From an uncultured Actinomycetes bacterium (lineage in GTDB: Bacteria > Actinomycetota > UBA4738 > HRBIN12): a stretch of DNA of 33,455 nt. The translations under genes and the position numbers were made by a program. The stretch covers positions 1 through 33,455 of the forward strand of contig CAVPIB010000015.1 in the NCBI GenBank assembly GCA_963704885.1, written 5' to 3'. This document shows, in pieces, positions 182 through 19,346 of this stretch (positions are counted from its first letter, which is position 1; each line of letters opens with the position of its first letter). Under the pieces are notes generated by a model, which worked only from the letters and a program-made list of their open reading frames with translations, was not told the origin of the DNA and searched no databases.

Positions 182-1288
182 TTAGGCGGAAGGACCTGCC
201 GGCGCCGGCGCCGCTACGTCCGCCGGGTAGGCGATGCCGGCCCGCTCGGGCCAGCCGATCGACAGCCGCTCGCCTGGAGCCCGTGGCTCCCGCAGTCGCA
301 GTCGGCAGGATCCGATAGTGGTTGAGGTCAACACGTCGAAGTGCGAGCCGAAGAACGAACAGGTCTCCACGGAGCCCGTGAGCGCTCCTTCGCCATCGGC
401 TCGGATCTCCAATTCCTCGGGGCGTAGAAGCACTTGCGCTCCGGCTCCGGGTCGTGCTCCGGCGTCGAGCGCTCTGAACCGTCGTCCTGCCACTTCCACC
501 TCCACGTTGCCCTCACCGGCGGATATGACGGTCGCCGGGAAGAACGAGCCGGCACCGATGAATCGCGCGGTGAACAACGTCGCGGGCGAACGGTAGATGG
601 TTTGCGGGTCGGCCATCTGTTCCAAGCGGCCCTGGTTCATCACGCCGACAAGCTGAGAGATGCTTAGGGCCTCGTCCTGGTCATGCGTCACGAACACGAA
701 GGTAGTCCCGAGCTCCTGATGGATCCGGAGCAGCTCCTCTCGGAGCGCGAACCGAACGTTGCGGTCGAGCGCGCTGAGCGGCTCGTCCAAGAGCAACACG
801 CGAGGACGGTTGATCAACGCACGCGCGACCGCCACCCGCTGCGCCTGCCCGCCCGAGAGCTCCGACGGGTAGCGTGCGCCCAATCCCTCCAGTCCTACTA
901 GCTGAAGCATGTCGGCCACGCGCTGCGAACGCTCCGCCGCAGATGGTCGCGAGTTCTTCGACTGAGTGGTCAAACCGAACCCGACGTTCTCGGTGATCGT
1001 CATGTGGGGGAAGAGTGCGTAGTGCTGGAACACCATGTTGAAGGGACGGCGCTCGGGCGGCCTCCGTGTGATGTCGGTCCCGTCGGTGAGGACCAGCCCA
1101 CTATCCGGCGACTCCAGCCCAGCGACGATCCGCAGAAGCGTCGTCTTCCCACACCCGCTCGGCCCGAGCAGGCTGAAGAACGAGCCGGCCGGGATATCCA
1201 GATCGAGCGCGTGCAGCGCCACCACATCGCCGAACCGCTTCGACACCCCTTCGATCGAGATAGCGCCCTTAGGGCCGGCGCCCGTCAT
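182..1288 (-). CDS. ABC transporter ATP-binding subunit, PotA/polyamine type
   Basis: Walker A GPSGCGKT, VFQHYALFPHM, signature LSGGQAQRVA, LLLDEPLSALD, VTHDQDEA and a C-terminal TOBE-like region. The true start is MTGAGPKG at 1288; the 640-aa ORF is a frameshift artefact. Confidence 0.92.
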   Translation of the reverse strand: MTGAGPKGAISIEGVSKRFGDVVALHALDLDIPAGSFFSLLGPSGCGKTTLLRIVAGLESPDSGLVLTDGTDITRRPPERRPFNMVFQHYALFPHMTITENVGFGLTTQSKNSRPSAAERSQRVADMLQLVGLEGLGARYPSELSGGQAQRVAVARALINRPRVLLLDEPLSALDRNVRFALREELLRIHQELGTTFVFVTHDQDEALSISQLVGVMNQGRLEQMADPQTIYRSPATLFTARFIGAGSFFPATVISAGEGNVEVEVAGRRFRALDAGARPGAGAQVLLRPEELEIRADGEGALTGSVETCSFFGSHFDVLTSTTIGSCRLRLREPRAPGERLSIGWPERAGIAYPADVAAPAPAGPSA

Positions 1289-2104
1289 GCCACCCTCGCG
1301 AGCGCCTCGGCTTGGGAGCGCAAAGCGGATCGGGACGACCGTCGCCGCTGAATGGCGAACGACAACGCAACCGCCACCCATGGCACCACTAATAGGATCG
1401 TCGCGACCGCGTTGATGGACGGGTCGATCGTGCGTCGCAGGCGGGACAGAACGAAGAGCGGCAGCGTCACCCGCGTCCCGGATGTGAAGTTGGTGATCAG
1501 CACCTCGTCGAAGGAGATCGCGAACGCGATCATCATGGCGCCCAGTATCGAAGGGCCTATCAGAGGGAGCGTGATGCGGCGAAGGACCATCGCTGGACGG
1601 GCGCCCAGATCGCGGGCCGCCTGCTCGACGGCCAGGTCGTAGTTCCTCAGTCGGGCTCCCACGATGGGGATCACGAACGGCGTCGTGACGATCACGTGCC
1701 CCGCCACGATGTGTCATGGACGGGTCGATCGCGAAGGTCTTCAGTGCGGCGACGAGTGAGATGCCGATGAACAGAGGTGGCAGCATGATGGGCAGTCGCG
1801 ACCCGCTCTCCAACCATCTGGTGGCCCGATTGATCCGCCGGGTTATCGCGAACGCGGCTGCGGTACCTACCACCCCCGCAACGACCGCCGTCGCGCTGGC
1901 CGCGGTCAAGCTTGTCTTCATGCCAGTGCGGAACTGCTGTTCGCTGAAGATCACGCGGAACCATCTGAGCGAGATCCCCTGGGGCGGCCAACTCAGATTC
2001 GACCCGGAGTTCAGCCCGTAGAGCACCACCACGATCAGCGGGAGATAGATGAAGACGACGAGGATCACGACGACCACCGTGAGTAGACCCGGATGGCGCT
2101 TCAT
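1285..2104 (-). CDS. ABC transporter permease, PotC-like (frameshift near 1710)
   Basis: FIYLPLIVVVLYG...SLRWF N-terminus. In the next frame there is the EAA loop (VEQAARDLGA) and FAISFDE...TLP. Confidence 0.88.
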
Positions 2105-2990
2105 CCGACGTGCCTGGGCAGGAGACCCGCACCGCGCATCGCGAGCCGAAGCAGGACAACCAGCCCAAGGAACAGGACGAGCATGACGAACGCCATAGCG
2201 GCTCCGAGGGGGTAGTTGAGGGCCGTGGTCAGTTGATCGGCGATCAACGTGCCGAACATAGCGCTCGAGCCGATGCCCCCGAGGAAGACAGGCGTTATGT
2301 AATCACCGGCCGAGAGGAAGAACACGAACAGGGTGGCGCCGAACATGGCGTTTCCGGAGAGGGGCAGAACGATCCGGCGGAGGGTCATCCACCGTGACGC
2401 ACCTAGGTCTCGCGCCGCGGGCTCCACGCTCAGACGAGATAGAAGACAGGCTGGAGTAAAGGACCAGCGCGGTGAACGGGAGGAAGAAGTTCGCCCTCTC
2501 GGCTACGACGACCGCGACCCGGGAGAAGAGCAGTATATGGAGGGGCTTATCGGTGACGTTCAACGCCTGCAGCAAGGGAGTTGAATATGCCGCTCTCGCC
2601 CGAGAGCGTGCGCCAGGAGTAGATCAATGCCCGGGATCGCTTCCCCCATCAGCGCGATCACGATCGCGATGAGGAGGAGCCCCTGGATCGACGGGCGCGG
2701 AACGCCAGGAAGTACGCGAGTTGGTAACCGAATACCACGGAGATGAGGGCCGTTGGGCCGGCGATCAACAGCGTGTTGAGCGCATACCGTCGGTATAGCT
2801 GCGTGGTCGAGGACCCTTCGGTAGTTGTCGACCGTCGCGCCGGGCACGATCTCGAGCAGATGAACGTGGAAGAACGAGAACGCGAACAGCATCGTGACCG
2901 GCACCAGCACGCCGAACAAGAGAAGCGCCCCCAAAGGGGTCGACAGGAGCGCAGCCGGCGACGGGAGAGCGGCAAGACCTAGGACGAGGG
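2101..2990 (-). CDS. ABC transporter permease, PotB-like (several frameshifts, start approximate)
   Basis: Fragments TVDNY, GYQLAYFLA, LPFTALVLYSSL, EPAARDLGASRW, GDYITPVFLGG and NYPLGAAMA. Confidence 0.85.
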
Positions 2991-2995
2991 CCGGT

Positions 2996-4178
2996 TCAGG
3001 AGCCCTTGACCTCCTCCCACAACCCGATGACGTCGTCGTACGTGGCGCGGTCTCCGTCGGGCTCGTGCGGGAATCCTTGGTTGAACGTCAGAGTGTTCGA
3101 CAGGTAGTTGTCGATGTCATCGTACGGATAGAGAGCAGCGGCTTCCGGAGTCAAGAGCGGGATCGCCGCGGAAACCCCCGGCCCTTGCAGGAGGCTGCTG
3201 TTCGCGTCAGCGTTCACCTCCGGATCCAGCAGGTGATTGACGAAGGCGTAGGCGTTCTGAGGATTGGGTGCCGTCGGAGTGATGAACGCCGAGTCCGCCC
3301 AACCGATGGCTCCTTCCGACGGGATCACCGTCTTCGTGGGGATGCCCTCGTCGGCGGTGACCGAATCCATGAAGGCCAACCCGACCACCATGTAGTCCAC
3401 ATCGCCGGCGATCAGCAGGGCGATGGAGTCGCCGATGGTCGGTGTCGACGCCTTGATCTGCCCGACTAGGCTCGTCAGGTAGTCCTTGACTTCGCCGTTC
3501 AGCTGATCCGTGGTCAGCTCGTCCGGATCGATGCCCACCGCGATGGCCCCGAGCGCGACGTTGTTCAGGGCGCTGTCGATGGTGGAGACGCGTCCCTTGT
3601 TCGCGGGGTCGAGGAGGTCGTGCCAGCTCTTCGGCTCGGGCACCCGATCGGTCCGATACGTCACGCCCGAGAAACCCCAGGTCCATGGGGACGCGTTATA
3701 GGTGCCATCGTCGTTCTTGAACGGCGCGACCTGGAAGGCGGGCATCAGTCCGGCCAGACCCGGAACCTGATCGAGGGTGGTCGGGCTGGTCAGGCCAGTC
3801 CACGTAGTCCAGGAGCACCACGTTGTCGCCATACGAGATGTCCCACTGATCACCGCCTGGACCCTTGAGGACCGTGGCCACCTCCTCGGGACCCGCGATG
3901 TACTTGACGTTCACCTCGATGTCGTTCTGCTTGAGCCACGGGGTCAGGTCGCCCGCCGTGTCGTATCCCTCCCACGTGTAGAGGTTGAGCGGTCCTCCCA
4001 CCGGTGGGAGCGGGCTCGGCGACGGACTTCCCGCCGTGCCGGAGGTGGGGCTCGACTCCGAGTCGCCGGACAAGCCGCAGGAGGCGAGGAAGGCGGCGGC
4101 GGCCGCCGTTCCGGTGACCCTCAGGAACCGCCTGCGGTCCATCAAGAATCTCAGCTCACGGTCTTGTGCCTCGCCCAC
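2996..4178 (-). CDS. ABC substrate-binding protein, PotD/PotF-like, Tat-exported lipoprotein (frameshift near 3810)
   Basis: MDRRRFLR twin-arginine signal with lipobox FLASC. LNLYTWEGY, PWTWGFSGVTY, SWHDLLDP, IPSEGAIGWAD and AYAFVNHLLDP are PotD-family motifs. Confidence 0.88.
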
Positions 4179-4219
4179 TCTCCCCTCTCCACGAACTCAT
4201 CACGGCCACCCTCGGTGGT

Positions 4220-4238
4220 CAGGTGGCATGATAACCTG
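4220..4238. promoter_or_regulatory. Operator-like site 1 (CAGGT-GGCATGATA-ACCTG), overlapping a minus-strand TATCAT -10 upstream of the ABC operon
   Basis: Inverted CAGGT/ACCTG arms with a 9-nt spacer that resembles the sites at 5664, 10489 and 14296. TTGACA and TTGACT hexamers lie upstream on the minus strand (4248-4258). Confidence 0.6.
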
Positions 4239-4281
4239 CATACCCGCTGTCAAGTCAACGCCGTTCGGGCCAGGCGACCTC

Positions 4282-5580
4282 CTAAGAAGGCTCCAGGTAG
4301 CGGTCTCGCTCCCAGTCCGTCACGTGCTCACGGAAGGCCGCCTCTTCGCGGCGACCCAGGATCGAATAGGTTTCCACGAACAGCTCGCCGAACACGTCCT
4401 TGCAGAAGGCGCTCTGCTCGAAGATGTCGATCGCCGCTGCCAAGGTGCCGGGGATCCGCTCGAGCGAGTCGTCCTTGTATGCGTCGCCCTCGATCTCCGG
4501 CGGCGGCTGGAGCCTCGGGCGATGCCATCGGCTCCGGAGGCGATGGCGCCCGCGAGGATGAGGTAAGGGTTGGCATCGGCCGAGGGCGTTCGGTTCTCGA
4601 GCCGTCGCGCCTCTGGCTCGCCGGGCGGGATCCGCACAGCCGCGGTCCGGTTGTCGAGGGCCCACGACACGCGATTCGGCGCGAACGTGTAGTCCTTCAG
4701 TCGCTTGTAGGCGTTGACCGTTGGGAGGTTGATGGCGGTCGTATCGACCGTGTGCATCAGAACGCCGGCGAGGTACGCGTGCGTGACCGACTCGTCGGTC
4801 GCGAACACGTTCCGTGGAGCCCTTGCGACGCAGGCTGTTATGGATGTGGTGGCCACTGCCTTCCATCCCCGTGAAGGGCATCGGCATGAACGTGGCGCGC
4901 AGATCATGTCGTTCTGTGATGAGCTTGACGACGTACTTGAGGACGGCGGCGTTGTCCGCCGTCTCGATCGGCGACGCGGGCCCCACGTTGATCTCGAACT
5001 GCGCGGGCCCGCCCTCCGTCTGGCTGGACTCGATGGGGACTCCGGCCGCGAGCAGCATCGCCCGGATCTCACCGATGACGGGCTCGTATTCCGCCCCGCG
5101 CGTCATCGACCAACAGCGGTGATCGTCGAAGGCGGGACGCCAATCTCGATCGCAGAGGTAGAACTCGAGCTCGGGAGCGACCCACGCCTCGTAGCCCAGG
5201 TCCTCGAGCGACATGACCGATCGTCGAAGGATGCTCCTGGAGTCCAAGGGGTGCTCCGCGCCGCCTCGCGCAAGGACTGCGTCCATGAGACAGAAGGCGG
5301 TGCCCGCGGCCCAGGGTGCCGGACGGAGGGTGGACAGGTCCGGGAACACGTGCATGTTCGGGAAGCCGGTGCTCAGCGTTGGCGTAAGGGGTCGGAGTGA
5401 TGTCGCCGAGGATGCTCCATGTGAACGCAGCGTTGGGCATGCTCATCCCGCTTTCGGCGACATTCAGGAACGCGGCCGTCGGCATCCGACGCCCGACCAA
5501 GACGCCCCACGTGTCAGGGAAGCAGCATTCGACAGTATCTATCGTCGAAAGGAAGCGTTCGGTCTCCGCCAGATTCGCGC
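4282..5580 (-). CDS. Glutamine synthetase family protein, gamma-glutamyl-amine ligase (PuuA/GlnA3-like); frameshifted, start codon not resolved
   Basis: Motifs FPDTWGVLVGRR, APELEFYL, TEGGPAQFEIN, ATFMPMP...GSGHHIHNSL, PTVNAYKRL, WALDNRTAAVRIP and RLENRTPSADANPYL are spread over three frames. GGAGGAG RBS near 5590. Confidence 0.85.
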
Positions 5581-5622
5581 TTGCTGAGGCTCCTCCCTGG
5601 ACGGTGGCCGGAGGATAGCACC

Positions 5623-5636
5623 CTGCAACGTTGCAG
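5623..5636. promoter_or_regulatory. Perfect 14-bp palindrome CTGCAACGTTGCAG in the divergent GS/SDR intergenic region
   Basis: Seen directly. It lies next to the minus-strand extended -10 TGCTATCCT (5612-5620) and resembles LacI-family operators. Confidence 0.5.
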
Positions 5637-5663
5637 AAGAACCGTCCTGGCGACCCCTGATAT

Positions 5664-5682
5664 CATCTGGTCTGCTCACCAT
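5664..5682. promoter_or_regulatory. Operator-like site 2 (CATCT-GGTCTGCTC-ACCAT), overlapping the TATCAT -10 of the SDR operon
   Basis: The reverse complement ATGGTGAGCAGACCAGATG shares GGTGAGCAGA with 14298-14307. The ATCTGGTC half-site is FadR-like. Confidence 0.55.
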
Positions 5683-5706
5683 ACATCTAGGCGAGGAGCG
5701 GTGAGG

Positions 5707-6457
5707 ATGCAGGGGAACGAGGTCTTCGCCCGCCTCGATGGCCTCACGGGGTTGGTCACGGGTGCAGGGCGAGGGGTCGAGGGGAGGCCTGCGCGATCGC
5801 TCTGGCCGGCCACGGTGCTCAGGTGCTGCTGGCCGATCTGGACGAGAAACGCCTGGTTGAGGTGGCCAAGATCGAGTCCGACGGCGGCCGCGCGACGACC
5901 TGCGTGACCGACGTTCGACAGTGGGCGAGCGTGCAAGCCATGGCCGACAGCTGCATCGAAGCGTTCGGCGGCATCGACTTCGCGATAGCCAACGCGGGGG
6001 TGGGCAGCTACTCATCGCTCAACACGGCGAATCCAGAGCTTTGGCGCCGTGTCGTCGAGACCAACCTGCTCGGCGTGCTGCACACGGTCCGTGCCGTCTA
6101 CCCGCAGATGAAGGAGCGACGAAGCGGACACCGTTCGTCCTGATGGCTTCCATCGCCGGGCGCCAGACATGGGTGGGTGAGCCCGTCTACATCGCCACGA
6201 AGTGGGGTGTCGTGGGGCTCGGGTGGGCCCTGCGGAAGGAAGCCCTGCCCGGCCGCAAGGTGCGCGTGACGATGATCGAGCCCGGCATGGTCGACACACC
6301 GCTCCTGCACGAGACCGAGGAGGGGATGAGCGAGCTCGAGCGTTTCGCGGCGCTCGACGTGAAGGATGTCGCTCGCGCCGTGGTCTTCGCGCTTTCCCAG
6401 CCTGAGGGAGTCGCGGTGAGCGAACTGATGATCACGCCCGTCGGTCCCGAGCTCTGA
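5707..6457 (+). CDS. SDR family oxidoreductase (ribitol-dehydrogenase/YdfG-like), frameshifted
   Basis: VTGAGRG, ANAG, NLLG, MASIAG, catalytic YIATK and IEPGMVDT across frames. GAGGAG RBS. Confidence 0.85.
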
Positions 6458-6485
6458 CGAGCCAGCCCGATGACCCGCGCCGGGA

Positions 6486-7609
6486 ATGACACTCGACCTG
6501 TGGGTCCGAAGGTGGAGCTGGCTGGAGTCGTTGGGAGACCGATCGAGGAGGTGGCGACGCCCCGGCGCTCGTACTGGACCTAGCCGCCGCCCGTCGCAAC
6601 ATCGCCGCCATGGCCGAACGGATGGCGGCGCTCCCGGCCGGCCTGCGACCTCACATCAAGGTGCACAAATGCGCGGAGCTGGCGCGGATGCAGATCGCAG
6701 CGGGGGCTCTCGGCGTCACCGCCGCGACCGTGTCGGAGGCCGTGGCGATGGTGGATGCTGGCGTCACCGACGTGCTGGTCGCGAACCAGGTCGTATCTCC
6801 AGTATCGGTCGCCCGGCTGCTGGACGCGGCGGGCCGAGCCCGCGTGCTGGTGGCGATCGACGACCGGCGCAACCTGGAGATGCTTGGCCTCGCCGCGATC
6901 GGGGCGGGGGTCGAGCTGGGAGTGCTGATCGAGCTCGACGTCGGACTCGGACGCGGGGGCGTTCGGTCGGTGGATGAAGTCGTGCGTCTTGCCGGGCTCG
7001 CGACCGAGACGCCAGGCGTGATCTTCGACGGACTCATGGGGTACGAAGGCCATTGTGCCAGCGAACCCGATCCGAAGATCCGGACCGAGGCGGCCACGCG
7101 AAGCATGGAGCTGCTGGCGTCCGCGGCCGATCGCTGTCGTGACGCTGGGCTCGTGGTTTCAACCGTTTCAGCAGGAGCCACGGGGACGTTCGAGTCACGG
7201 CCAACGCCCGCGCCGTCACCGAGGTGCAAGCTGGTTCCTACGTCGTGATGGATTACCAACTTTTCCATGAGGCGCTCGTCTCTGGGTTCGAGACCGCCCT
7301 GACCGTCATGGCCACCGTGACCGGGCGTCACGACGATCTGCTCGTGCTCGACGCCGGCCGCAAGTCGATCGATGTCAGCCTGCGTCCGCTCCAACCCTCG
7401 GATCCGCGTGCCACGCTCGCATTCATCCATGAGGAACACGTGGGAATCCGCTACGAGGGACCGGCTCCGGGGTCCGTGAGTAGTCGAGCGTGAGCTTCGT
7501 ACCGGGATACGCTCCCACGACGGTCAACCTGTTCGGTGCCTACCACGTCGTCGAGGACGGCTACGTCGTAGACGTATGGCCGGTGCTAGCGCGACACGGG
7601 GCTCCGTGA
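6486..7609 (+). CDS. DSD1 / D-threonine aldolase family PLP-dependent enzyme (fold type III), frameshifted
   Basis: TPALVLDL...NI, PLP lysine motif LRPHIKVHK, ELDVGLGRGGV, GLMGYEGH, EVQAGSYVVMD, LDAGRKS, HEEH and PGYAPTTVNL...DVWPVLAR. Confidence 0.85.
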
Positions 7610-9266
7610 AGGCGGGGTGGTTCTCCGCCGAGCTCGAGGGCGCCGACCTGACGCAGCTCCGACGATGGGGTGGACTGGAGTACGCTGGTGGCGAGCCAGG
7701 TGACCGTGAGAGATGAGCGGTGGGGCACGCTCCGGCCGGCGTTAGTGACCGCCGAGGTAGAGCGAGGACGCCGATCGGTTCTCGGTGAGTCTCGAGGCGA
7801 CACACGGCGACGACGTCTTGGCGTGGACCGGAACCATCCACGCCTCCGCCGACGGAACACTTGGATTCGACGTGAACGCGATCGCCAAGCGTGAGTTCGT
7901 GTACCGCCGGATCGGAGTGTCGTCCAGCATCCCTGGGCGTCGCATGTTGGCGCGCGGTCCGACCTCCCAGGCGTCGGCACTGCCGCGACCGGCACCTTCC
8001 CCTCGGATATCGCGCCCCAACCTTTGGTCGACGGACACCTCGCTCCCTTCGTACCCGCGTTCAAGGAACTCTCGATCCGGTTCCCCACGGGTGTTGACGC
8101 GGGCTACGTCTTCGAAGGTGAGGACGATGGGTTCGAGCTCGAAGGAGCCAACGCAACTGGACCGACGCCTCGTTCAAGACCTATCCGACGCCGCTGAAAC
8201 GGTCGCTCCCGAGGCGGGTGCGGCCGGCGATCGGTGGACCCAGAGGTTACGGCTCACCGTCAGAGGACCCGCTCCGGGGTCGGCGGCCACCGATGGGCCG
8301 GTAACGGTCGAGATCGGCTCCCCAACGGGCGGCCACGTCGTCGATCGGCGTAACGGCACCCGCCGGACCTGTGGATTCGGGCGCGCTCCGCAGGCTGCAG
8401 CCCGCTCATCTGCGCGTAACGGTAGAACCACCTGATCGTGATCGGGTCGTGCGGCGAGCCACTTCCCTCGCGAGGGAGATCGGCGTTCCGCTGGAGCTCG
8501 TTCTCCTGTTCGATGACGAACCCGAAGGGGCGGACCTGTTCGGCAAGGCCCTCGAGGACGCCCCTCGCCCGGGTCCTCGCTCTACGCCGAGACGGCGTCA
8601 CAACCGACGGGCGTTTCGTTGCTAGGGCGCGCCCCGATTTCCTCGAACGGAGCGGGGTTCTTCGGTGGCACAGCCTCGCACTTCTCGGAGCTGAATCGCT
8701 TGAGGCCTTCGCCCGATGGGATGGACGGGGTCGCGCTGGCGATGTCTCCACAGGCGCACACGATAGATCGAGCGATCGATGGTGGAAACATCGAGTAGGA
8801 AAGAGGCAGATCGTGAGGCAGGTGAGCGGTTTCTCCCGTGGCCTGCCCGTTGCAGTCTCGCCGGTGACCCTGGCCGCCCGTGAACCTCCCCATGAGCAGG
8901 TTCCGATCGACCACCGCGTGGGCTCCTCGTTCGGCGCTGCTTGGACCGGCGGGCTCGGTGGCGAACCTCGCGGCCAGGCTGCACATCTCGTCCGTGACGC
9001 TGCGCGAGGCCGTCGATCGCACGATCTTGGGCTCTGCTCAACTCAGCCGCGTCTTCAGCGAGCTCGCAGCGAGGCGCGGTTCCACGCTGCACGAGGTCTC
9101 ATCGTCCGAGCCACGACGGGCCCTGGCGATCGCCGCAACCGGCGCACCTGTAATTGCTCGTCGAACCTGACACCAGGAGTCGTGCGAGGTCAGGCTCCCG
9201 AGGCGTCGTGTCGGGGGAGCGGACCTCGCGCCCTACGAGGTGGCGGCGCTCGACCTGTCCCCGTGA
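7606..9266 (+). CDS. D-apionate lactonase (ApnL)-like protein, heavily frameshifted
   Basis: The GTG start overlaps the upstream stop. Fragments KAGWFSAELEGADL, VRDERWGTL, FEGE..GFELE..RNWTDASFKTYPTPL, SPVTLAAR, FGAAWT and C-terminal LAPYEVAAL match my recollection of the ApnL family (VRDRDWGT; EDQRNWTDASYKTY). Confidence 0.65.
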
Positions 9267-9960
9267 TAGTGGGGGATCCATCGACATCCCGACGTCCCGC
9301 TCGAGCATCCGCAGGCGGGCAAGCTCGCCGTCCCCGGAGGCGATCGCGTCGCGGATGCGTGTGTGCTGGTCCAGTTCCCAGTGTGCGTATCCCTCGGCGG
9401 TCTGATAGAGCTGCGGGCCAAGCTCGAAGGCCAACCTGAAGAACGGGCGGACGATGCTCGATAGGACCCGGTTCTTCGCGGCATCGGCAACCAGCAGGTG
9501 GAACTGCGAGGCCTCGACTATGGGCCGCTTCAACTCATCCAAGCGAGCACGGTGTCGGTCCAGCACGTCCTGCATGGCGGTCAGATCCTCATCCGTCCGG
9601 CGCTCCGCAGCCAGGCGTGCCAACTCGACCTCGATGAGTCGCCGGGCCTCGAGGAGTTCCGGTGTGATCACCTTCGGCTCGGCGTTCGTCTCGTCTTTCG
9701 AGATAGGCGGATGTTTCCGCCACGAACACACCCTGGCCGTGCCGGATCTCGATGACGCCGATCATGGCCAGTCCGTTCAACGCTTCGCGGACCGTCGATC
9801 GACCGCACCCGAGTCGTTGCGTCAGCTCGCGTTCGGCCGGCAGGCGAGTGCCGGGAGGGAGGTCTTCGACAGCATTTATCAGGATCTGCTGCGCGACCGT
9901 CTCGGCCAGCTTCTTGCGTGGAGCCTGGTAACGTGTCAGGCGGGGATTCTCATCGTCCAC
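9233..9960 (-). CDS. GntR family transcriptional regulator, FadR subfamily (frameshift near 9730; 3' end approximate)
   Basis: wHTH region LPPGTRLPAERELTQRLGCGRSTVREAL...IRHGQGVFV. FCD domain ELLEARRLIE...FHLLVADAAKNRVL...HTRIRDAIASGD. Confidence 0.9.
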
Positions 9961-9970
9961 GGCAGTCGGT

Positions 9971-10451
9971 CTAGCCCGTTCCCTGCTCAGTTCCAGGACG
10001 CGCCCGCTCGATCAACTCGATCTGGACGCCATCGGGATCGGACGCGTAGGCGCCCTTCCCTCCCGCGTAGGCGCCCAGTTCCATGTCGATAGGCTCCGCG
10101 GTACGCGAACGCACGCCGGCAGCCCGCAGCTTGGCCAGGGTGCTCGTCAGATCGTCCACCAGGAGCGAGAGGTGTGACCGTCCCGGCTCGTTCTCTGCAC
10201 CCGTCGGAAGGGGAGTCCCGACGGGACACCGGTACTGCATACAGTCGACCGAAGTGCCCCCAGGGATCTTCAGCTCAGCCCATTCGATTCTCGTTCGGTC
10301 CAGAGCAACCAACCTGTCGATGTGGTCCCACTCGATGACACCGCGCCCAACCACTTCCAGGCCCAGGGAGTTTCCTCCAGAAGGTGAGCGAACGCTCGAT
10401 GTCGCTCACCGTGGCGCCGAAGTGATCGACGCCCGTGACCCCACCCGCCAT
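9971..10451 (-). CDS. VOC / glyoxalase family protein (frameshift near 10375)
   Basis: GGAGG RBS and ATG at 10451. DHFGATVSDIERSL, HLSLLVDD and DPDGVQIELIE are metal-ligand motifs. Confidence 0.85.
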
Positions 10452-10488
10452 CGACCTGCCTCCTAACCCGTGACGCCGGTGACGTCTT

Positions 10489-10512
10489 CAAGAGAGCAGA
10501 TAACCTGCTGAC
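10489..10512. promoter_or_regulatory. Operator-like site 3 in the divergent VOC/E1-alpha promoter region
   Basis: GAGCAGATAACCTGCTGAC at 10494-10512 is identical to 14301-14319. An extended -10 TGCTACCAT follows at 10523-10531, 7 nt before ATG 10539. Confidence 0.75.
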
Positions 10513-10538
10513 CTGTGAACGATGCTACCATGCGCCAC

Positions 10539-11489
10539 ATGGGTCAGACCGAGGCGCCGTCACGCACGGCCGCCTTCGAGCTTCTGGTGCTCATCCGCCG
10601 CTTCGAAGAGGAGGCGAGACGCCTTTCTCTTTCCGCTTCGCTTCCGGGGGCTGTGCATCTCGCGACGGGGCATGAGGCGGTGAGCGTTGGGGTCGGCTCG
10701 GCGATCGAACCTACGGACTGGGTAGCTTGTACCTATCGGGGTCACGGACACGCTCTGACAGCCGGGGTGACTCCGCGCGCCCTCATGGCGGAGCTACTGG
10801 GTCGCGAGACCGGCATCTGCGGTGGCCGTGCGGGATCGATGAACATCGTGGCTCGCGAGCACCGATTGCTCGGTTCGTTCGGGATCATCGGCGGAAGCAT
10901 CGCTGCCGCTACGGGGGCCGGACTGTCACTTCGCGGCACGGGCGCAGCCGCGATCGCGTTCTTCGGTGACGGGGCGGTGAATCAGGCGTACTTCCTTGAA
11001 TGCCTCAATCTCGCCGCGGTGCTGTCCCTCCCGGTTCTGTTCGTGTGCGAGAACAACCTGTACAGCGAGTACACCCGCACCGATGTCGTCACCGGAGGCT
11101 CCATCGCCGATCGCGCCAGGGCCATGGGAGTCGTCGCCGAGGTGGTGGACGGCATGGACGTGCGAGAGGTCAGCCGGGTCGCGGGCTCCGCGCTCGAGGA
11201 GGTTCGGCGGGGTACCGGGCCCCGGTTCGTGGAGGCCGAGACCTATCGGTTCGTGCCGCACAGCCGAGCCGATCCCGTTGCCTACCAGCCTCCCGACGAG
11301 GTGGAGCGATGGAAGGCGCGCGATCCGATCGATCAGGAGCGCGTCCGCCTGCTCGCCGAGGGCGCGGATGCAGGCGAGCTGGATTCGCTCACGCGATCGA
11401 TCGATGAGCAGGTCAAGGCCGCGATCGCGGCCGCGTTCGAGGATCCGTTCCCTGAGATCGGGTCACTCCTGGACGGAGAGTTCCTCTGA
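10539..11489 (+). CDS. ThDP-dependent dehydrogenase E1 alpha subunit (AcoA/PdhA-like)
   Basis: GAVHLATGHEA, TYRGHGHAL, GRAGSMN, ThDP motif GDGA...ENN and YRFVPHS. Intact ORF with a probable leaderless start. Confidence 0.9.
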   Translation: MGQTEAPSRTAAFELLVLIRRFEEEARRLSLSASLPGAVHLATGHEAVSVGVGSAIEPTDWVACTYRGHGHALTAGVTPRALMAELLGRETGICGGRAGSMNIVAREHRLLGSFGIIGGSIAAATGAGLSLRGTGAAAIAFFGDGAVNQAYFLECLNLAAVLSLPVLFVCENNLYSEYTRTDVVTGGSIADRARAMGVVAEVVDGMDVREVSRVAGSALEEVRRGTGPRFVEAETYRFVPHSRADPVAYQPPDEVERWKARDPIDQERVRLLAEGADAGELDSLTRSIDEQVKAAIAAAFEDPFPEIGSLLDGEFL

Positions 11490-11500
11490 GCGCCGGATCG

Positions 11501-12460
11501 GTGTCGATCAGGGATGCCCTTCACGCCGCCCTCGCGGACGAGTTGTCCGCGGACGCGTCCGTGATCTTGTTGGGCGAAGACATCGGCATGGCCGGCGGCG
11601 TCTTCGCCGTCACGAGCGGTCTCATAGAGCGGTTCGGCCCGGAGCGGGTGATCGATACGCCGATCTCCGAGCTGGCTCTGACCGGGGCAGGGTTCGGCGC
11701 CGCCGTGACCGGATCGCGTCCGGTGGTGGAGATCATGTTCGGCGACTTCATGGCGCTGGCGATGGATCCACTCCTGAACCAGGCCGCGAAGTATGCGTTC
11801 GTCTCGAACGGGCAGGGCGGCGTCCCGATAGTTGTCCGATGCGCCGTCGGAGGCGGGGCGCGCATGGGGGCGATGCACTCGCAGGTCCCTGCGTCGTGGT
11901 TCATGGGCGTTCCGGGCCTGAAGATCGTGGCTCCGAGCGATCCGGCGTCTGCCTACGGTCTGTTGCGGGCGTCGATCCGCGATGACAACCCGGTGATCTT
12001 CATGGAGCACAAGATGCTCTATTCGGAGAAGGGTCCGAGTTGGAGCGACGAGCCGATGCCGATCGGGCGCGCCGCGATCGTGCGCGACGGGACGGACGTC
12101 ACCATCGTCACAGCCATGCGATCGACACTTGATGCCGTGGAGGCGGCCGGGCGGCTGAGCGCTGAGAACGGGATCGAGGCAGCCGTGATCGATCTCCGAT
12201 CCCTCCGTCCTCTCGACATGGCGACGATCATGTCCTCGCTGTCGATCACCAACCGCGCGATGGTCGTGGAGGAGGGGCCGAAGACCGGAGGATGGGCGGG
12301 TGAGGTCGTGGCTTCGATCGCCGAGACCGCCTGGGGTGAGCTGGAGGACCTCTGGCGCCTGACGTCGCCTGACCTTCCGACCCCATTCAGCGCGCCGTTG
12401 GAGGACGACTTCCTACCGCGGGTTGACGCGATCGTCGGATCGGTCCTGAGCCACGCCTGA
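11501..12460 (+). CDS. ThDP-dependent dehydrogenase E1 beta subunit (AcoB/PdhB-like)
   Basis: GEDIG..GGVF, RVIDTPISE, RPVVEIMFGDF, HSQ, NPVIFMEHK and IDLRSLRPLD. Intact ORF. Confidence 0.92.
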   Translation: MSIRDALHAALADELSADASVILLGEDIGMAGGVFAVTSGLIERFGPERVIDTPISELALTGAGFGAAVTGSRPVVEIMFGDFMALAMDPLLNQAAKYAFVSNGQGGVPIVVRCAVGGGARMGAMHSQVPASWFMGVPGLKIVAPSDPASAYGLLRASIRDDNPVIFMEHKMLYSEKGPSWSDEPMPIGRAAIVRDGTDVTIVTAMRSTLDAVEAAGRLSAENGIEAAVIDLRSLRPLDMATIMSSLSITNRAMVVEEGPKTGGWAGEVVASIAETAWGELEDLWRLTSPDLPTPFSAPLEDDFLPRVDAIVGSVLSHA

Positions 12461-12464
12461 CCGG

Positions 12465-13448
12465 TCAGCGGCGAGCCGCGATCGCCTCTTCGGCGGCCGC
12501 CAACACGGCACCGGCCGTCAGGCCGTGCGTTCGGGCGACGTAGTCGTTGGTGCCGAACGAGCAGAACTCATCTCGCACGCCCACGGGCCGCACGGGCACC
12601 CCGACCCCTTCGCGCGCGAGCACCTCCGACACGCAGGAGAACAATCCGCCGATGATCGAGTGGTTCTCGGCCGTCACCAGCGCGCCCGTCTCGTGCGCGA
12701 GCGCGAGCACCGCTGCGCCGTCGAACGGCTTGATCGTGGACATCTTCAACACGGCGGCCGATACGCCCTGGTCTGCAAGCGCCGTCGCGGCATCGAGCGA
12801 GCGCCGCACCATCACGCCGCTGGTGACGATACCCACGTCGGTCCCCTCGTGCAGGATCTGCCCCTCACCGATCCTGAACGTGTGGCTTCCCCTCTCCACA
12901 TCTGGCGTCTCACGGCCGAGCAGCTCGCGCAGGTACACCGGACCCTCGAAGTCAACGACCGCGTGCGTTGCCTCAGCCATCTCGGCGTTGTCGCACGGGT
13001 CGATCACGGTCATGTTCGGCAGCGCTCGCATGTGCGCCAGGTCGTCGATCCCTTGGTGCGTCGGGCCGAACGTCGAGTAGATCCCCGGAAGCGCGGCCAC
13101 TATCTTCACGTTCGCACGGTTCAGCGCACATTGGATGGCTATGAAGTCGAGAGCTCGGCGCGTGGCGAACACGGCGAACGTGGTGGCGACCGGTGTGAAC
13201 CCTGCCTTCCACAGACCCACCGCCGCGCTTGATCAGGTTCTCCTCGGCCATGCCGACGTTGATGAACCGATCCGGGAACGCCTGGGCGAACGGGTGTAGT
13301 CCCGTGACGCCGGCGACGTCGGCGGAGAGCGTGACCACGTCTGGCCGGCGTTCGCCGATCTCCAGGATCGCGTGACCGAACGGGCCGGACTTCGCCAAGA
13401 CGACCGGGTCGACCGGTGGATGGCCCGTGCCGGCAGCGTGTCGCTCAC
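12465..13448 (-). CDS. Transketolase C-terminal subunit (split transketolase), frameshifted
   Basis: LSADV, FPDRFINVGMAEENL, VFATRRALDF, GPTHQ, GPVYLR, TIKPFD and ENHSIIGGL. The GTG start overlaps the upstream stop. Confidence 0.88.
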
Positions 13449-14279
13449 GTGGATCCTTCCAGCTGGCGCGTGACCGCGTCCCACTCGTCGTCGTCCACAC
13501 GGACGAAGTGATTGCGTTCGCGCTCCATGATCAGCGGAACGCCACATCCGAGCGTGGTGCGACAGACCACGGCCTTCGGTCGACCGGTCACCTCACGCGC
13601 CCGATCGAACGCGCCCAGCAGCGCCGCGATGTCGTTGCCGTCGACCTCGTCCACCCACCAGCCGAACGCGCGCCACTTCTCAGCGTGCGGCTCGATCTCC
13701 AGGACCAGGTCGCCATCGGCCTGAACGCGATTGACGTCGATCACGTTCACCAGGTTGTCAAGGCCTTGCGCCGCGGCGAACATCGCCGACTCCCAGGTGG
13801 AGCCCTCCTGGACCTCTCCGTCGGACATGAAGTTGAAGACGCGCGCCGGGTGGCCCTTCAGGCGGAGCCCGATCGCCAGGCCCGCCGCCACACCAAGGCC
13901 GTGCGCGAGTGAGCCGCCCGTCATTTCGATCAACGGAGGGTGCCCCTCGTACGTGGACATGATGAGCGTGGTGCCGTCGGCACCGTAGGTGTCAAGATCC
14001 TTCGCCCAAGTGGCCTGCCTCCGCGAGTGCGGCCCACAGTCCGATGGAGTAGTGGCCCGCCGAGTAGATCAGGCGATCGATATCGGGAGAGCGGTCGACC
14101 GGGTCGTAGCGCATCTCAGATAGGAGTAGGACGGCGAGGATGTCGGCCACGTCCAGTCCCTGACCCACGTATTCCTCACCTTTGCCGGCGCACATCCGCA
14201 CGACGTTCTTGCGTATCTGCTTTGCTCGGGTTCGGAGCTCGTCTATGGACGCGCCAGTTGAACTCCGCTTCGGTTGCAG
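13445..14279 (-). CDS. Transketolase N-terminal subunit (split transketolase, atypical GY subfamily); frameshift near 13995, start approximate
   Basis: RAKQIRKNVVRM, DRLIYSAGH, GGSLAHGL, ThDP motif SDGEVQEGSTWE...DVNRVQADG, EKWRAFGW and VDGND. GGAGGG RBS at about 14283-14288. Confidence 0.88.
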
Positions 14280-14289
14280 ATGCCCTCCT

Positions 14290-14320
14290 AGTCAGAAGGT
14301 GAGCAGATAACCTGCTGACT
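14290..14320. promoter_or_regulatory. Operator-like site 4 upstream of the transketolase operon
   Basis: AGTCAGAAGGT-gagcagata-ACCTGCTGACT is an inverted repeat matching at 10 of 11 positions. It contains the 19-mer identical to 10494-10512. Confidence 0.75.
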
Positions 14321-14386
14321 CTCAGTATACGATGGCTGGAGATCCGGGGTCGACCGGGCCGGGACGCCCGGCCGTAGGCTTAGCCC

Positions 14387-15263
14387 GTGATCGTGCACCT
14401 GGTGGACGGGACGTACGAGCTGTTCCGTTACCACTTCGGGGTGCCCTCACACGTGACCGACGACGGCCGCGAAGTCGCCGAGCGACGCGAGGGGTCCTCG
14501 GCTCCATGCTCTCCATGCTCGAGGGCGGTGCTACCCACGTGGGTATCGCCACCGATCACGTCATCGAGTCGTTCCGCAACGCGTTGCTCGAGAGCTACAA
14601 GACGGGCGAGGGCGTCGATCCCGTGCTCCGCTCGCAGTTCGAGCTCTTCGAAGACACGCTAAGGGCAGTCGGGTTCTGCGTCTGGCCGATGGAGGACTAC
14701 GAGGCCGATGACGCTCTCGGCTCGGCCGCCAGCGTGGCCGCCTCCGACCTACGCGTCGAGCGGGTGATCATCTGCACACCCGACAAGGATCTGGGCCAGT
14801 GCGTGAGTGCCGATGGGCGGGTGGTGCAGTTCGACCGGCGAGAGGCCCTGACCGACTTCGCCGGCGTCGTGGCCAAGTTCGGCGTGGCGGAGAGCATCCC
14901 GGACTACCTGGCTCTGGTCGGCGACACGGCCGACGGGATCCCAGGCGTGCCCGGCTGGGGGGCGAAGACCTCAGCGACCGTGCTTGCCCGCTACCGGCAT
15001 CTGGAAGACATCCCGCTACAGGCGGGCCTCTGGGACATCTCCGTGCGGGGGAGGGCGAACCTGCTGCGAACCCTGGCCGAGCGGTTGGAGGAGGCGTTCC
15101 TCTACAGGCGGCTGGCGACGATCGACACGAACGCGCCGACGATCAGTGGGTCGAGGAGCTCGAGTGGACGGGTCCGGCCGAGGGCTTCGAGGAGTCGCTG
15201 AGGGCGATCGACGCCGACGGGTCCATCGCGCGCATCATGAGGCTCACCGACACGCGCGGTTGA
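14387..15263 (+). CDS. 5'-3' exonuclease / flap endonuclease (Xni/ExoIX-like), frameshifted
   Basis: VHLVDGTYELFR, SFRN..YK, YEADD, TPDKDL and H3TH motif LALVGDTADGIPGVPGWGAKT. TAGGCT -10 lies 6 nt upstream of the GTG. Confidence 0.9.
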
Positions 15264-15352
15264 GCGAAGGTCCTCCCGGGTGGGTGACGGCTGTTTCCGA
15301 CCGTGGGCCACGTCACGCTAGGCTCTCTGCCTTCGCCGGAGGGAGCCGAGAC

Positions 15353-16472
15353 ATGCCGACACGCCACACGCCATACCACCAGCGGTTCATGGAGCTCGGG
15401 GCTGAGATGGGGGGATAGGATCGGGTTCGACGCGGCGGTCGTATTCTCATCGACCGAGAAGGAGCACCTGGCCACACGCCGAAGGTGTGGGGCTGTACAA
15501 CATCTACTACCAGGGCGCCTCGACATCAAGGGTCCCGATGCGCAGGCGCTCCTGGACCATGTCCTGGCGCGTGACGTGCCGCGGCGGTTGGCCACCGACG
15601 GTCAGGTGCTCTACTCCTCGGTCTGCAACGCGGACGGCGGCATGATCGACGATCTCACCGCTTACCGGCTGGGCCCGGAGCACTACTGGCTGATCGCCAC
15701 GCCGGCCCGCGCCGAGATCGTTGGGACTCACGTGACCGAGCACGCGCGCGATCGCCGCGCCTATGTGACCAACTGCATCTCGGGCACTGCGTATCTGTCC
15801 GTACAGGGCCCGGGTTCGCGCGAGCTGCTCGCGCCGCTCGCGGAGGCGGATCTGTCGACCGACCGGCTCCTCTACTTCAAGTGTGTTCGAACCGTGGTCG
15901 CCGACGTGCCCACCCTCGTATCGCGCACCGGCTACTCGGGCGAGCTGGGGTACGAGCTCTACTACCCGCGCGACTACGCGCTCCACATGTGGGACACGCT
16001 CACGAACGCCGGGGCCACGCCGTGCGGGTTGGGGGCGCTACGGAGCGTTCGCATGGAGAAGAAGTACCCGCTCTACGGCCTGGACGTTAGCGAGACCACG
16101 TCGCCGCTGGAGGCGGGTCTGGGATGGGCGGTCGACCTGGATGGGTCAGAGCATCCGGGACGCGACGCGCTGCTGCGTCAGCGCGATGAGGGGATCGCAC
16201 GGCTCCTCACGGGGATCGAGTTCCCCGACCTGTCGTTCGTCCCGTCCGCTGGGGACGCCGTGGCGACCGCCGGCGGAGAGCCGCTCGGCACTCTCACGTC
16301 CGCGGACCGCGGCTGGTTCCTTGGCAAGGCGCTGGCGATGGGCTATCTCCCCTCCCGACCACCTGCCCACCGGTATCCCGCTCCCCGTGGCCTCGGCTCG
16401 CGGACCCAGTGCGAAGGCCTCACTTCGGATCGACCGTTCTACGACCCGGACGGAACGCGCGTCCGCGCTTAG
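15353..16472 (+). CDS. Aminomethyltransferase family protein (GcvT-like), frameshifted near the 5' end
   Basis: GGAGGGAG RBS and MPTRHTPYH start. GGMIDDL, VQGP, SRTGYSGELGYE, GLGALRSVRMEK, SPLEAGLGW and PFYDP. Confidence 0.88.
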
Positions 16473-18125: not shown

Positions 18126-19346
18126 TCAGCTGCTTCCCGTGACCTTGGCACGAGGTCGCTCGAAGCGTCCGAAGATGGCGATCATGCCGAGGAGGATCAT
18201 TCCCGGGACGAACGACCATCGTGCGCGTTCCGCCCGCCATCGTGCCGTGCTGTCCGTCTCGTGGCCGAATCCGAGCGGCCAGAGCAGGAGCACGGCAAGC
18301 AGGTAGGCGGTCATGTGCCAAAGGAACAGTGTCATGATCACGCCGTTCACGGCGATCTATCGCCACGGCCACCGGCGTTGGAGCCATCTAGAGAGCCGGG
18401 GCCGAAGCAGCATCACCGCGCCGATCGACCACACGCCGCCGAGCATGAAGCAGACCGTGGGTGGGTAGGCGTTCGACACGGCCTCGATGTCCGTGCCGAG
18501 CAGGCTCTTCGGGTAGGTGCCGATCCCTGGGAACCAGGAGTAACGGATGTCGCCGAACAGCTTCCACAGGGGAGGGTTCGTCAGAAGGATCAAGCCCGAG
18601 AGGCCCGCGACGACCATCGCCCAGAACGCCCTGCGGGGCCATCGCGTCATGCTCTCATCGCCGTAAGCGTGTCCTAGCTGATGTGGGAACAGCAGGACGA
18701 ACGCCACGTTTGCCCAGCGAGCGAGGGGATGTCCGCCCATGAACCCGATCGCATCCGTGAGGAACGCTCCTGCGACCATCGCCGCCGGGACCCAGAGCCC
18801 GAAACGTCGGTGCAGGGCGATCGTCCACGGCGAGATGCAGACGACCACGACGTAGACGGCCAGGAACCAAGGGGGCCGAACGGGATCGTCGCGCCCGGCG
18901 GGAGCATTCCGCCGCAGCGGTCTGGTGTCTCCCCAAAGAGGCGGTCCCGCGGTGGCGCCTATGTCGGCTAGGTGCAGCGCGATCTGTACGACGGCCCATA
19001 CACCCAGGAACACGAGCGACGGGCGCAGGAGCCGTGCGAGACGGTCACGGACGAACGCGCCGGTCGACTTGCCTCGCTCCTGATAGGAATCGAACGCTAC
19101 GAGGTTAGAGAAGCCACCCACGAAGAAGAAGATCGGCATCACCTGGAGGAACCAGGTCGCCAGCCAGAGCCACGACGTGAGGCCGATCGCACTGGTCGAT
19201 CGGATGAACCCATGATCCCAAGCGATCATCGCGATCGTCCAGTGGCCGACCACGACACACAGGATGCTCACTGCACGCAGGAAGTCGACATAGCGATCCC
19301 GCGTTGCGGGGGTCCGATCGGCCAGCTCGCCGATGCTCGCCGTCAT
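18126..19346 (-). CDS. Acyltransferase 3 family membrane protein, frameshifted
   Basis: RDRYVDFLRAVSILCVVVGHW, TWFLQVMPIFFFVGGF, WFLAVY, SNAYPPT and MTLFLWHM. Confidence 0.88.

Follow-up and report, generated by a model that had tools for sequence, protein, structure and literature searches.

For soil bacteria, the catabolism of amino sugars and other hydroxylated amines is a main way to regain carbon and nitrogen from the debris of cell walls and polysaccharides. To our knowledge, the amino-sugar routes described so far start with a kinase or a phosphotransferase system (PTS), or with deacetylase or deaminase steps. In E. coli, PuuA and PuuBCD form a gamma-glutamyl-amine pathway. Streptomyces coelicolor has the glutamine synthetase (GS) paralogues GlnA2, GlnA3 and GlnA4, which are reported to glutamylate polyamines and ethanolamine (PMC8998196, PMC5403932, PMC6529630), and for apiose one transketolase route and three oxidative routes are set out in another paper (PMC13753588). 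The gene cluster discussed here lies at positions 182–14320 of contig CAVPIB010000015.1 (assembly GCA_963704885.1), a stretch of 33,455 nucleotides, hereafter the window, from an uncultured, soil-type actinobacterium. Its probable function is to import a hydroxylated amine, for example an amino sugar, and to degrade it in a way unlike any pathway described so far. In our view it is a genuine catabolic regulon for a polar amine, both conserved and uncharacterised; its substrate and order of steps we only infer.

Fourteen contiguous genes had been proposed for this span in an earlier note on the same DNA, and all 14 families were found there when Pfam and NCBIfam were applied to the open reading frames (ORFs) of the window and of two better-preserved copies, L009 on contig C7 of the same assembly (G000) and L010 in the same-genus genome G012. 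The minus strand from 182 to about 5620 carries the genes for an ATP-binding cassette (ABC) importer, namely an ATPase, two permeases and a binding protein, together with a GS-like gene. These are followed on the plus strand, from about 5664 to 9263, by the genes for a short-chain dehydrogenase/reductase (SDR), a pyridoxal-phosphate (PLP) enzyme and a relative of the lactonase ApnL. The FadR-type regulator and VOC genes occupy the minus strand from about 9243 to 10451, the genes for E1 alpha and E1 beta, dependent on thiamine diphosphate (ThDP), the plus strand at 10515–12460, and the two transketolase halves the minus strand from 12465 to about 14290. As the earlier note had stated, no kinase, gamma-glutamyl hydrolase or aminotransferase was found within 182–14320. 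The ApnL-like gene had no match in the Pfam version used, and Pfam gave none for the plus-strand ORFs at 7480–10466. The genes are as follows.

182–1291, minus strand: ABC transporter ATPase, PotA-like (ABC_tran + TOBE_2; Pfam); single frame at 233–1267 against the L018 orthologue
1288–2137, minus strand: ABC permease 1 (BPD_transp_1); one frame break at about 1710–1715, intact at L009:5808–6629
2104–3018, minus strand: ABC permease 2, PotB/PotH-like (BPD_transp_1); intact at L009:6626–7492
2999–4196, minus strand: periplasmic binding protein, PotD/PotF-like (SBP_bac_6/SBP_bac_1); frame break at about 3796–3804
4291–5620, minus strand: glutamine-synthetase-like ligase (Gln-synt_C); frame-broken in the window
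5664–6457, plus strand: SDR (adh_short); frame break at about 6134–6179
6486–7606, plus strand: fold-type III PLP enzyme of the DSD1/D-threonine aldolase (DTA) family (Ala_racemase_N + D-ser_dehydrat); two frame breaks
7576–9263, plus strand: ApnL-like protein, about 550 amino acids (aa) expected; several frame breaks, identified by NF049900 and tblastn pieces
9243–9960, minus strand: FadR-subfamily GntR regulator (GntR helix-turn-helix (HTH) + FCD); break between the domains, ends approximate
9971–10451, minus strand: VOC (glyoxalase-fold) protein (Pfam Glyoxalase, E 1.6e-5); start approximate
10515–11489, plus strand: ThDP-dependent E1 alpha, intact, accessory (E1_dh, 204.6 bits)
11501–12460, plus strand: E1 beta, intact, accessory (Transket_pyr/Transketolase_C; Pfam, NCBIfam)
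12465–13440, minus strand: C-terminal (Pyr + C) subunit of a split transketolase; one frame break
13445–14290, minus strand: N-terminal, ThDP-binding subunit of the split transketolase (Transketolase_N); one frame break

An alignment of 28 close full-length ApnL-like relatives was run against one genome per species (185,579 species), which gave 68 loci with an ApnL homologue, and all of these were searched by tblastn with 15 cluster queries. Conserved co-occurrence in other genomes, set beforehand as the test of the earlier note, was borne out: 18 of the 68 loci hold the set in conserved order, 14 of them in that of the window and four in a shorter version. The former (L011–L020, L023, L032, L062 and L071) all come from metagenome-assembled genomes (MAGs) of Actinomycetota or uncultured Actinomycetes; L015 and L016 run into contig ends, and L062, a duplicate of L010, was counted once. 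The shorter version (L048, L050, L056 and L067, three of them from Solirubrobacterales or Thermoleophilia) holds the GS-like, SDR, PLP-enzyme, ApnL-like, FadR and VOC genes and both transketolase halves. It lacks PotABCD, and instead of this ABC importer the gene of an APC amino-acid permease lies between the GS-like and SDR genes in all four. Throughout the 18 loci the GS-like ligase is missing only from the truncated L015, and the VOC gene is kept in 17. E1 alpha/beta, by comparison, are present in seven loci, absent from six that span the site and unassessable in one; despite an operator copy of their own they are therefore accessory and, unlike the other genes listed in the earlier note, not part of the core. 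The unit consists of 12 core genes and the accessory E1 alpha/beta pair, and no flanking gene beyond it was common to four or more loci. By its distribution it is a patchy accessory trait, the ApnL-like gene being found in 10 of 201 genomes sampled in the order (G000 included), in 8 of 129 in the family and in 4 of 75 genera; in gene order and operator sites the unit is kept across these patchily distributed, uncultured Actinomycetota. A chance neighbourhood is ruled out by the conservation and the common operators.

The exact 19-mer GAGCAGATAACCTGCTGAC occurs twice in the window, at 10494 and 14301, where none is expected (100 shuffles). With the related elements, the sites in the promoter regions, to which no strand was assigned, are these.

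4222–4240: operator-like site, 19-mer variant GGCATGATAACCTGC (site GGTGGCATGATAACCTGC), upstream of the binding-protein gene
5653–5685: conserved related element CTGATATCATCTGGTCTGCTCACCATACATCT in the divergent GS/SDR promoter region
10494–10512: operator-like 19-mer in the divergent VOC-FadR/E1 promoter region
14301–14319: operator-like 19-mer upstream of the transketolase operon

Such sites recur at homologous intergenic positions across the orthologous loci. The variant at 4222–4240 recurs in the corresponding position of L009 and of 10 of the 12 Actinomycetes-type loci scanned, and the GS/SDR element is kept in L009 and in all 11 orthologous loci shown. A motif shared by every promoter had been claimed, and a related element is indeed present in all four regions, but not one identical motif. 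The sites end in GGT...ACC, which we take to be typical of GntR-family operators. The regulator has the FadR-subfamily domain architecture, an N-terminal GntR HTH and a C-terminal FCD, read here from adjoining minus-strand pieces (GntR E 4.4e-16, FCD E 1.1e-20) and from orthologues that are single ORFs; the L050 orthologue is nearest to the NanR, LldR and GlcC models, below their cut-offs. The unit is a self-contained regulon, probably repressed by its own FadR-type regulator, the effector of which would probably be an acidic intermediate. The promoter regions of the shorter version contain a palindromic element of another, though related, type (GGTCATCTGATGACC / TGGTCTGATCAGCA), located at L067:5147–5170 and 12898–12930 and, in L048, L050 and L056, upstream of the permease gene.

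The window is the entire contig C15 of its assembly (3.0 Mb, 20 contigs, 97% complete, 4.5% contamination), and of its cluster genes only those for the ATPase, E1 alpha and E1 beta are in a single frame; the others are mostly frame-broken because of many 1-nt indels. Positions 1–23204 are 97.2% identical to G000:C7:222523–245704, and the whole window is a near-duplicate of C7:222523–258549 (97% identity across 23 kb, then 92% and 85%); a third copy of its right half, 88% identical, lies on C17. Two or three variants of the region, at strain or species level, are thus present in the assembly, C15 apparently being a strain variant of C7 there. A comparison of C15 with C7 shows 452 mismatches and 162 gap events, 113 of the latter within 182–14320. 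The gaps are mostly of one nucleotide (132 of 162), 70 are in homopolymer context and only eight are multiples of three. The C7 copy is broken at other places than the window copy, being open from the ATPase through the PLP enzyme and also in the FadR gene; L010 has breaks of a like kind, and the cluster orthologues of other assemblies are intact. The frame breaks are thus almost certainly assembly errors, probably of the uncorrected long-read type. That so many genes are broken would also be expected of a decaying pseudogene cluster with genuine frame breaks, a very improbable explanation in view of the nearly identical C7 copy, of the prevalence of 1-nt gaps, of the like breaks in L010 and of the intact orthologues. 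Frame plots of GC content at third codon positions (GC3) were too noisy for gene calling since frames change often. The divergence of C15 from C7 is a mosaic, with 0–7 mismatches per kb at 0–7 kb and 18–23 kb and 40–67 per kb over most of 9–17 kb (only 13 in kb 13), from FadR to genes past the cluster; this suggests strain recombination or a chimeric contig.

The importer has the PotABCD/PotFGHI architecture of binding protein, two permeases and an ATPase with a TOBE domain, at scores below those of the equivalog models: 345 bits for the ATPase on PotA NF006987 (cut-off 482), 127 bits for the intact permease 2 copy (L009:6626–7492) on PotB NF007044 (cut-off 348), and 50 and 44 bits for the binding protein on PotD (cut-off 582) and PotF (cut-off 636). 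The closest solved structures to the binding protein are of the PotD/PotF type (E 4e-23 to 1e-11). Since two unrelated importer types, the PotABCD-like one and the APC permease, serve the two versions of the unit, an amine or amino-acid-like substrate gains support. Quite possibly, though we put it forward tentatively, the cluster degrades a hydroxyl-bearing polar primary amine, most likely a 2-amino-2-deoxy sugar or an amino-sugar acid. This would enter through the PotABCD-like system, or through the APC permease in the Thermoleophilia-type version, and the SDR would oxidise its anomeric or terminal carbinol to an amino-lactone, which the ApnL-like enzyme would open to an alpha-amino-beta-hydroxy acid. 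The fold-type III PLP enzyme would then remove or rearrange the amino-acid end, the VOC protein might isomerise or detoxify a carbonyl product, and the split transketolase would cleave an unphosphorylated ketol, helped by the E1 pair where present. The GS-like enzyme would gamma-glutamylate the amine at some stage or capture nitrogen.

The ApnL-like protein belongs to the same family as the lactonase of the apiose routes, at a distance. Two frame pieces of the C7 copy matched NF049900 (D-apionate lactonase) with E-values of 2.3e-32 and 9.2e-10 (112.3 and 37.7 bits), and the intact L050 orthologue reached 102.3 bits against a cut-off of 750. Full-length relatives are 517–555 aa long, and the close ones all bear the Pfam ApnL domains PF25837/8/9. 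In a quick maximum-likelihood tree of 50 ApnL-family proteins, seven Actinomycetes-type cluster proteins are set apart by a branch of 100% support and three Thermoleophilia-type ones form a 100% clade of their own, so placed that the cluster label needs two changes; both are separate from the homologues in apiose or acid-sugar clusters. On this tree, a single origin of the cluster-type proteins is possible. Six Actinomycetes-type and three Thermoleophilia-type rows were further compared with 40 others, leaving out L071 for its long, error-ridden branch. The family-invariant residues are all retained (the ELEDQRNW..D.S.K.Y block, R269, H380, D383 and W442 in L011 numbering), and the sole position that unites both cluster groups against the rest is Arg99, which is Asn in 34 of the 40 others. 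An AlphaFold model of P0004, the nearest full-length relative, had a mean predicted local distance difference test (pLDDT) score of 92.4; P0004 is not the window's own protein and shares 67% identity with the N-terminal piece in the C7 copy. The model has a central (beta/alpha) barrel with a beta-sandwich at either terminus, a structure for which Foldseek gave only fold-level matches to glycosidases of the glycoside hydrolase (GH) families GH36, GH97 and GH79; at 7–14% identity these were taken as common architecture only, and a glycosidase activity was not adopted. We read the protein as a putative hydrolase of the lactonase type whose specificity is altered.

The other 50 loci have ApnL homologues and no cluster. 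Their commonest neighbour is an SDR (19 of 50), a frequent pairing that backs the SDR-to-lactonase step; further neighbours are parts of ribose-type sugar ABC transporters, a DUF1537-type kinase (SBD_N/NBD_C), Gfo/Idh/MocA proteins, PGDH_C and xylose-isomerase-like TIM barrels. Neighbours of this kind reportedly mark the apiose and acid-sugar context in the work of Carter and co-workers from 2018. The apiose/apionate context of Gfo/Idh/MocA oxidoisomerase, DUF1537 kinase and sugar ABC transporter was not found in the 18 cluster loci. An alternative would be that the cluster is a variant of D-apiose or of neutral- or acid-sugar catabolism by the SDR, ApnL and transketolase, the nitrogen genes being mere neighbours. 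It is true that SDR and ApnL homologues are typical of sugar and acid-sugar clusters, that the protein matches the ApnL family, and that transketolase halves also lie near ApnL homologues in five of the other 50 loci (L047, L058, L060, L070 and L075), a transketolase being the end of one apiose route (PMC13753588). This alternative is nevertheless improbable, as the GS-like and PLP genes are equally conserved and stand under the same operators, both importer types are for amines or amino acids rather than sugars, and the ApnO-type Gfo/Idh/MocA, DUF1537 kinase and isomerase genes that mark the other ApnL loci are absent. The ApnL-like proteins themselves differ from those of the apiose routes in their well-supported separate clades, in Arg99 for Asn, and in scores of 102–112 bits where the cut-off is 750.

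The PLP enzyme matched best the D-threonine aldolase AxDTA (4v15, 200 bits) and then BhcC (6qkb, 160 bits), followed by D-threo-3-hydroxyaspartate dehydratase and D-serine dehydratase; it scored 200.7 bits on NF045642 (cut-off 690), and Protein Atlas gave only generic 'alanine racemase family' clusters. It shares with AxDTA and BhcC the fold-type III Ala_racemase_N and D-ser_dehydrat domains. According to PMC4401734, Lys59 of AxDTA binds PLP, Arg157 and Tyr187 are PLP or substrate contacts, His193 is the proposed base, and His347 and Asp349 of a His-x-Cys/Asp motif are the divalent-metal ligands. Aligned to 4v15, the cluster enzyme retains Lys59, Arg157 and Tyr187. At His193 (motif Y.G..QH) the 10 aligned orthologues have Ser or Asp, reading YEGHC(A/V/T/I)(S/D), and at His347/Asp349 all 10 have Tyr/Pro (GYAP in nine, AYAP in L016) where the references have PSHVDPT (AxDTA, 7dib) or PGHCDPT (BhcC). 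AxDTA, 7dib and BhcC keep all three residues; 7yqa keeps His193, its alignment ending before the metal motif. Because the base and both metal ligands are missing, the cluster enzyme is not a canonical aldolase or dehydratase of its family, and the dehydration or retro-aldol cleavage assigned to it in the earlier note is not safe. The catabolic reading of that note is partly supported: it stands as to a conserved, co-regulated and uncharacterised unit, and falls short in the E1 pair, which is not core, and in the PLP chemistry. The His-Cys pair of YEGHC and the Tyr of GYAPT may, on the alignment, supply other acid/base chemistry.

The same PLP subfamily adjoins the ApnL homologue in L045:5107–14467 and L052:6813–19191, in the company of an FGGY kinase, a DeoC/LacD aldolase, a family-5 binding protein and a 2-hydroxyacid dehydrogenase. 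Since lactonase and PLP enzyme are paired both there and in the cluster, they form a module of at least two contexts, both of which we read as ending with the cleavage of a sugar-like carbon chain, made in L045 and L052 differently, by kinase and aldolase. A DUF4432 protein and a metallo-beta-lactamase-fold protein are also among the neighbours in L045 and L052.

Among the remaining enzymes the SDR has clavaldehyde dehydrogenase (2jah, 139 bits) as its closest solved structure, and the VOC protein matches Ni-glyoxalase I (4mtq) weakly (E 0.0055). E1 alpha scored 289 bits on TIGR03182 (cut-off 394), its closest solved structure being the E1 alpha of pyruvate dehydrogenase (PDH), and E1 beta 313 bits on NF006667 (cut-off 321). 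By these scores the pair is of the PDH/acetoin type, below cut-off; a search of the conserved unit for a partner E2 gave none. The transketolase is split, with Transketolase_N on one gene and Transket_pyr and Transketolase_C on the next, as in the two-gene enzyme of Carboxydothermus hydrogenoformans, its best solved match (170 bits on the 6yak N-chain, 215 bits for the C-subunit on 6yaj). It differs from that enzyme in that I/V/T and L take the place of the Ser and His of the 6yaj Pyr domain in each of the 14 cluster C-subunits, and in a neighbouring motif that resembles 1-deoxy-D-xylulose-5-phosphate (DXP) synthase; the Arg of LGR is kept, and the first Arg position was not alignable. This Ser and His are known as phosphate-binding in transketolases, and their replacement here fits the absence of a kinase from the unit.

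The GS-like protein gave 240 bits on type III GS, 225 on GGputSyn NF045547 (cut-off 650) and 223 on GlnA TIGR00653 (cut-off 429), each of them short of its cut-off. In a genome-wide search for type I GS (GSI) its C7 copy reached 196 bits and two other genes passed, with 679 and 518 bits; the cluster gene is one of five GS-like paralogues beside these two true GSI genes, and GSI structures align to its product over the C-terminal domain only. In three of the four short-version loci there is also an M20 hydrolase, nearest to 'hydrolase' and glutamate carboxypeptidase models and below their cut-offs. It is found, for instance, at L050:3310–4470, followed at L050:4382–5293 by a gene of about 290 aa with no Pfam or NCBIfam match; both lie between the transketolase and GS-like genes, as they do in L048 and L056.

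Several points weigh against the degradation of an amino sugar or amino-sugar acid by the route proposed. No cluster member has an equivalog-level match that would indicate the substrate, and the binding protein is only distantly PotD/F-like (50–53 bits on the equivalog models). The loss of His193, His347 and Asp349 in all 10 aligned PLP orthologues makes the step that yields glycine or a keto acid the weakest of the route. Arg99 in place of Asn suggests an extra negative charge on the substrate and not a cation. The PLP enzyme would need a free amine, which the GS-like ligase would block, and the candidate deblocking hydrolase, the M20 protein, occurs in three of the four short loci, while all 14 long loci lack it. 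The role given to the VOC protein is a guess.

Some of these points would suit the main rival, in which an amino alcohol or amino polyol is gamma-glutamylated in the manner of Puu, Ipu or GlnA4. Here the GS-like enzyme would mask the amine, the SDR would oxidise a hydroxyl of the conjugate, the ApnL-like enzyme would open the lactone formed by cyclisation, and the PLP enzyme would receive an amino acid after a hydrolase had split off glutamate. The GS-like ligase belongs to the core (17 of 18 loci), stands by an amine importer under a local regulator as in the gamma-glutamyl-amine pathways, and scores almost equally on GGputSyn (225 bits) and GS models (223–240 bits); an additional carboxylate on a conjugate would accord with Arg99 in both cluster ApnL groups, and the M20 hydrolase of the short version is nearest to glutamate carboxypeptidase models. 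That actinomycete GlnA2/3/4 paralogues glutamylate polyamines and ethanolamine, as reported in the papers cited above, points the same way. We hold this rival to be unlikely, though to be reckoned with. The hydrolase is absent from the 14 long-version loci, and where present its match is below cut-off; enzymes of the carboxypeptidase G type, moreover, cut alpha-linked and not gamma-linked glutamate. Neither the oxidase, the aldehyde dehydrogenase nor the gamma-glutamyl hydrolase of Puu is among the 14 genes, which include instead a lactonase-family protein, a PLP enzyme and ThDP enzymes, and 225 bits on GGputSyn is far from its cut-off of 650.

The direction of the pathway could also be the reverse, with glycine and a ThDP-derived ketol as starting materials for the biosynthesis or salvage of a beta-hydroxy amino acid or amino sugar. 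The reactions of DTA-family enzymes and transketolases are generally reversible, and GS-like ligases are known to occur in biosynthesis. An importer or APC permease with a local FadR-type regulator and operators at every promoter is the usual catabolic layout, however, and no genes for an exporter, a nonribosomal peptide synthetase (NRPS), a polyketide synthase (PKS) or tailoring enzymes were seen within the conserved unit, which makes this direction highly improbable.

As to novelty, no pathway with this gene combination was found in the main texts of the open-access literature, in agreement with the earlier note, and every member scores below the curated cut-offs of the equivalog models for characterised proteins. 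What is new is the undescribed combination of known families, three divergent subfamilies among them. It is conceivable, if doubtful, that the cluster encodes an oxidative pathway, not described before, by which an amino sugar or amino-sugar acid is degraded, with an ApnL clade of its own specificity, a PLP subfamily free of the metal site and a phosphate-independent split transketolase that would make a kinase unnecessary, and that this pathway is so far confined to uncultured Actinomycetota. If true, an oxidative, kinase-free and ThDP-dependent route would be a new pathway type, and it would provide the first functions for the ApnL-like clade, for metal-less fold-type III PLP enzymes and for non-phosphate split transketolases. 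Being compact, with a clear regulator and operator and with intact orthologues in several assemblies, the cluster is directly testable by gene synthesis and in-vitro reconstitution.

Beyond the unit, the next gene (14332–15201, read on the C7 copy) encodes a 5'-3' exonuclease. Two genes past the cluster, at 15303–16472 on the plus strand, lies a gene for a GcvT-family aminomethyltransferase, which would be suggestive if glycine were a product; it was rejected as a member, having no homologue near the cluster in the 68 loci. Further along the window, tandem copies of about 1.85 kb (28137–29987 and 30376–32221), 86.6% identical, encode SulP-family (Sulfate_transp) proteins, one of which shows a cyclic-nucleotide-binding domain. 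A divergent pair of genes for membrane acyltransferases of the Acyl_transf_3 family is located at 18357–19346 (minus strand) and 20153–21052 (plus strand).

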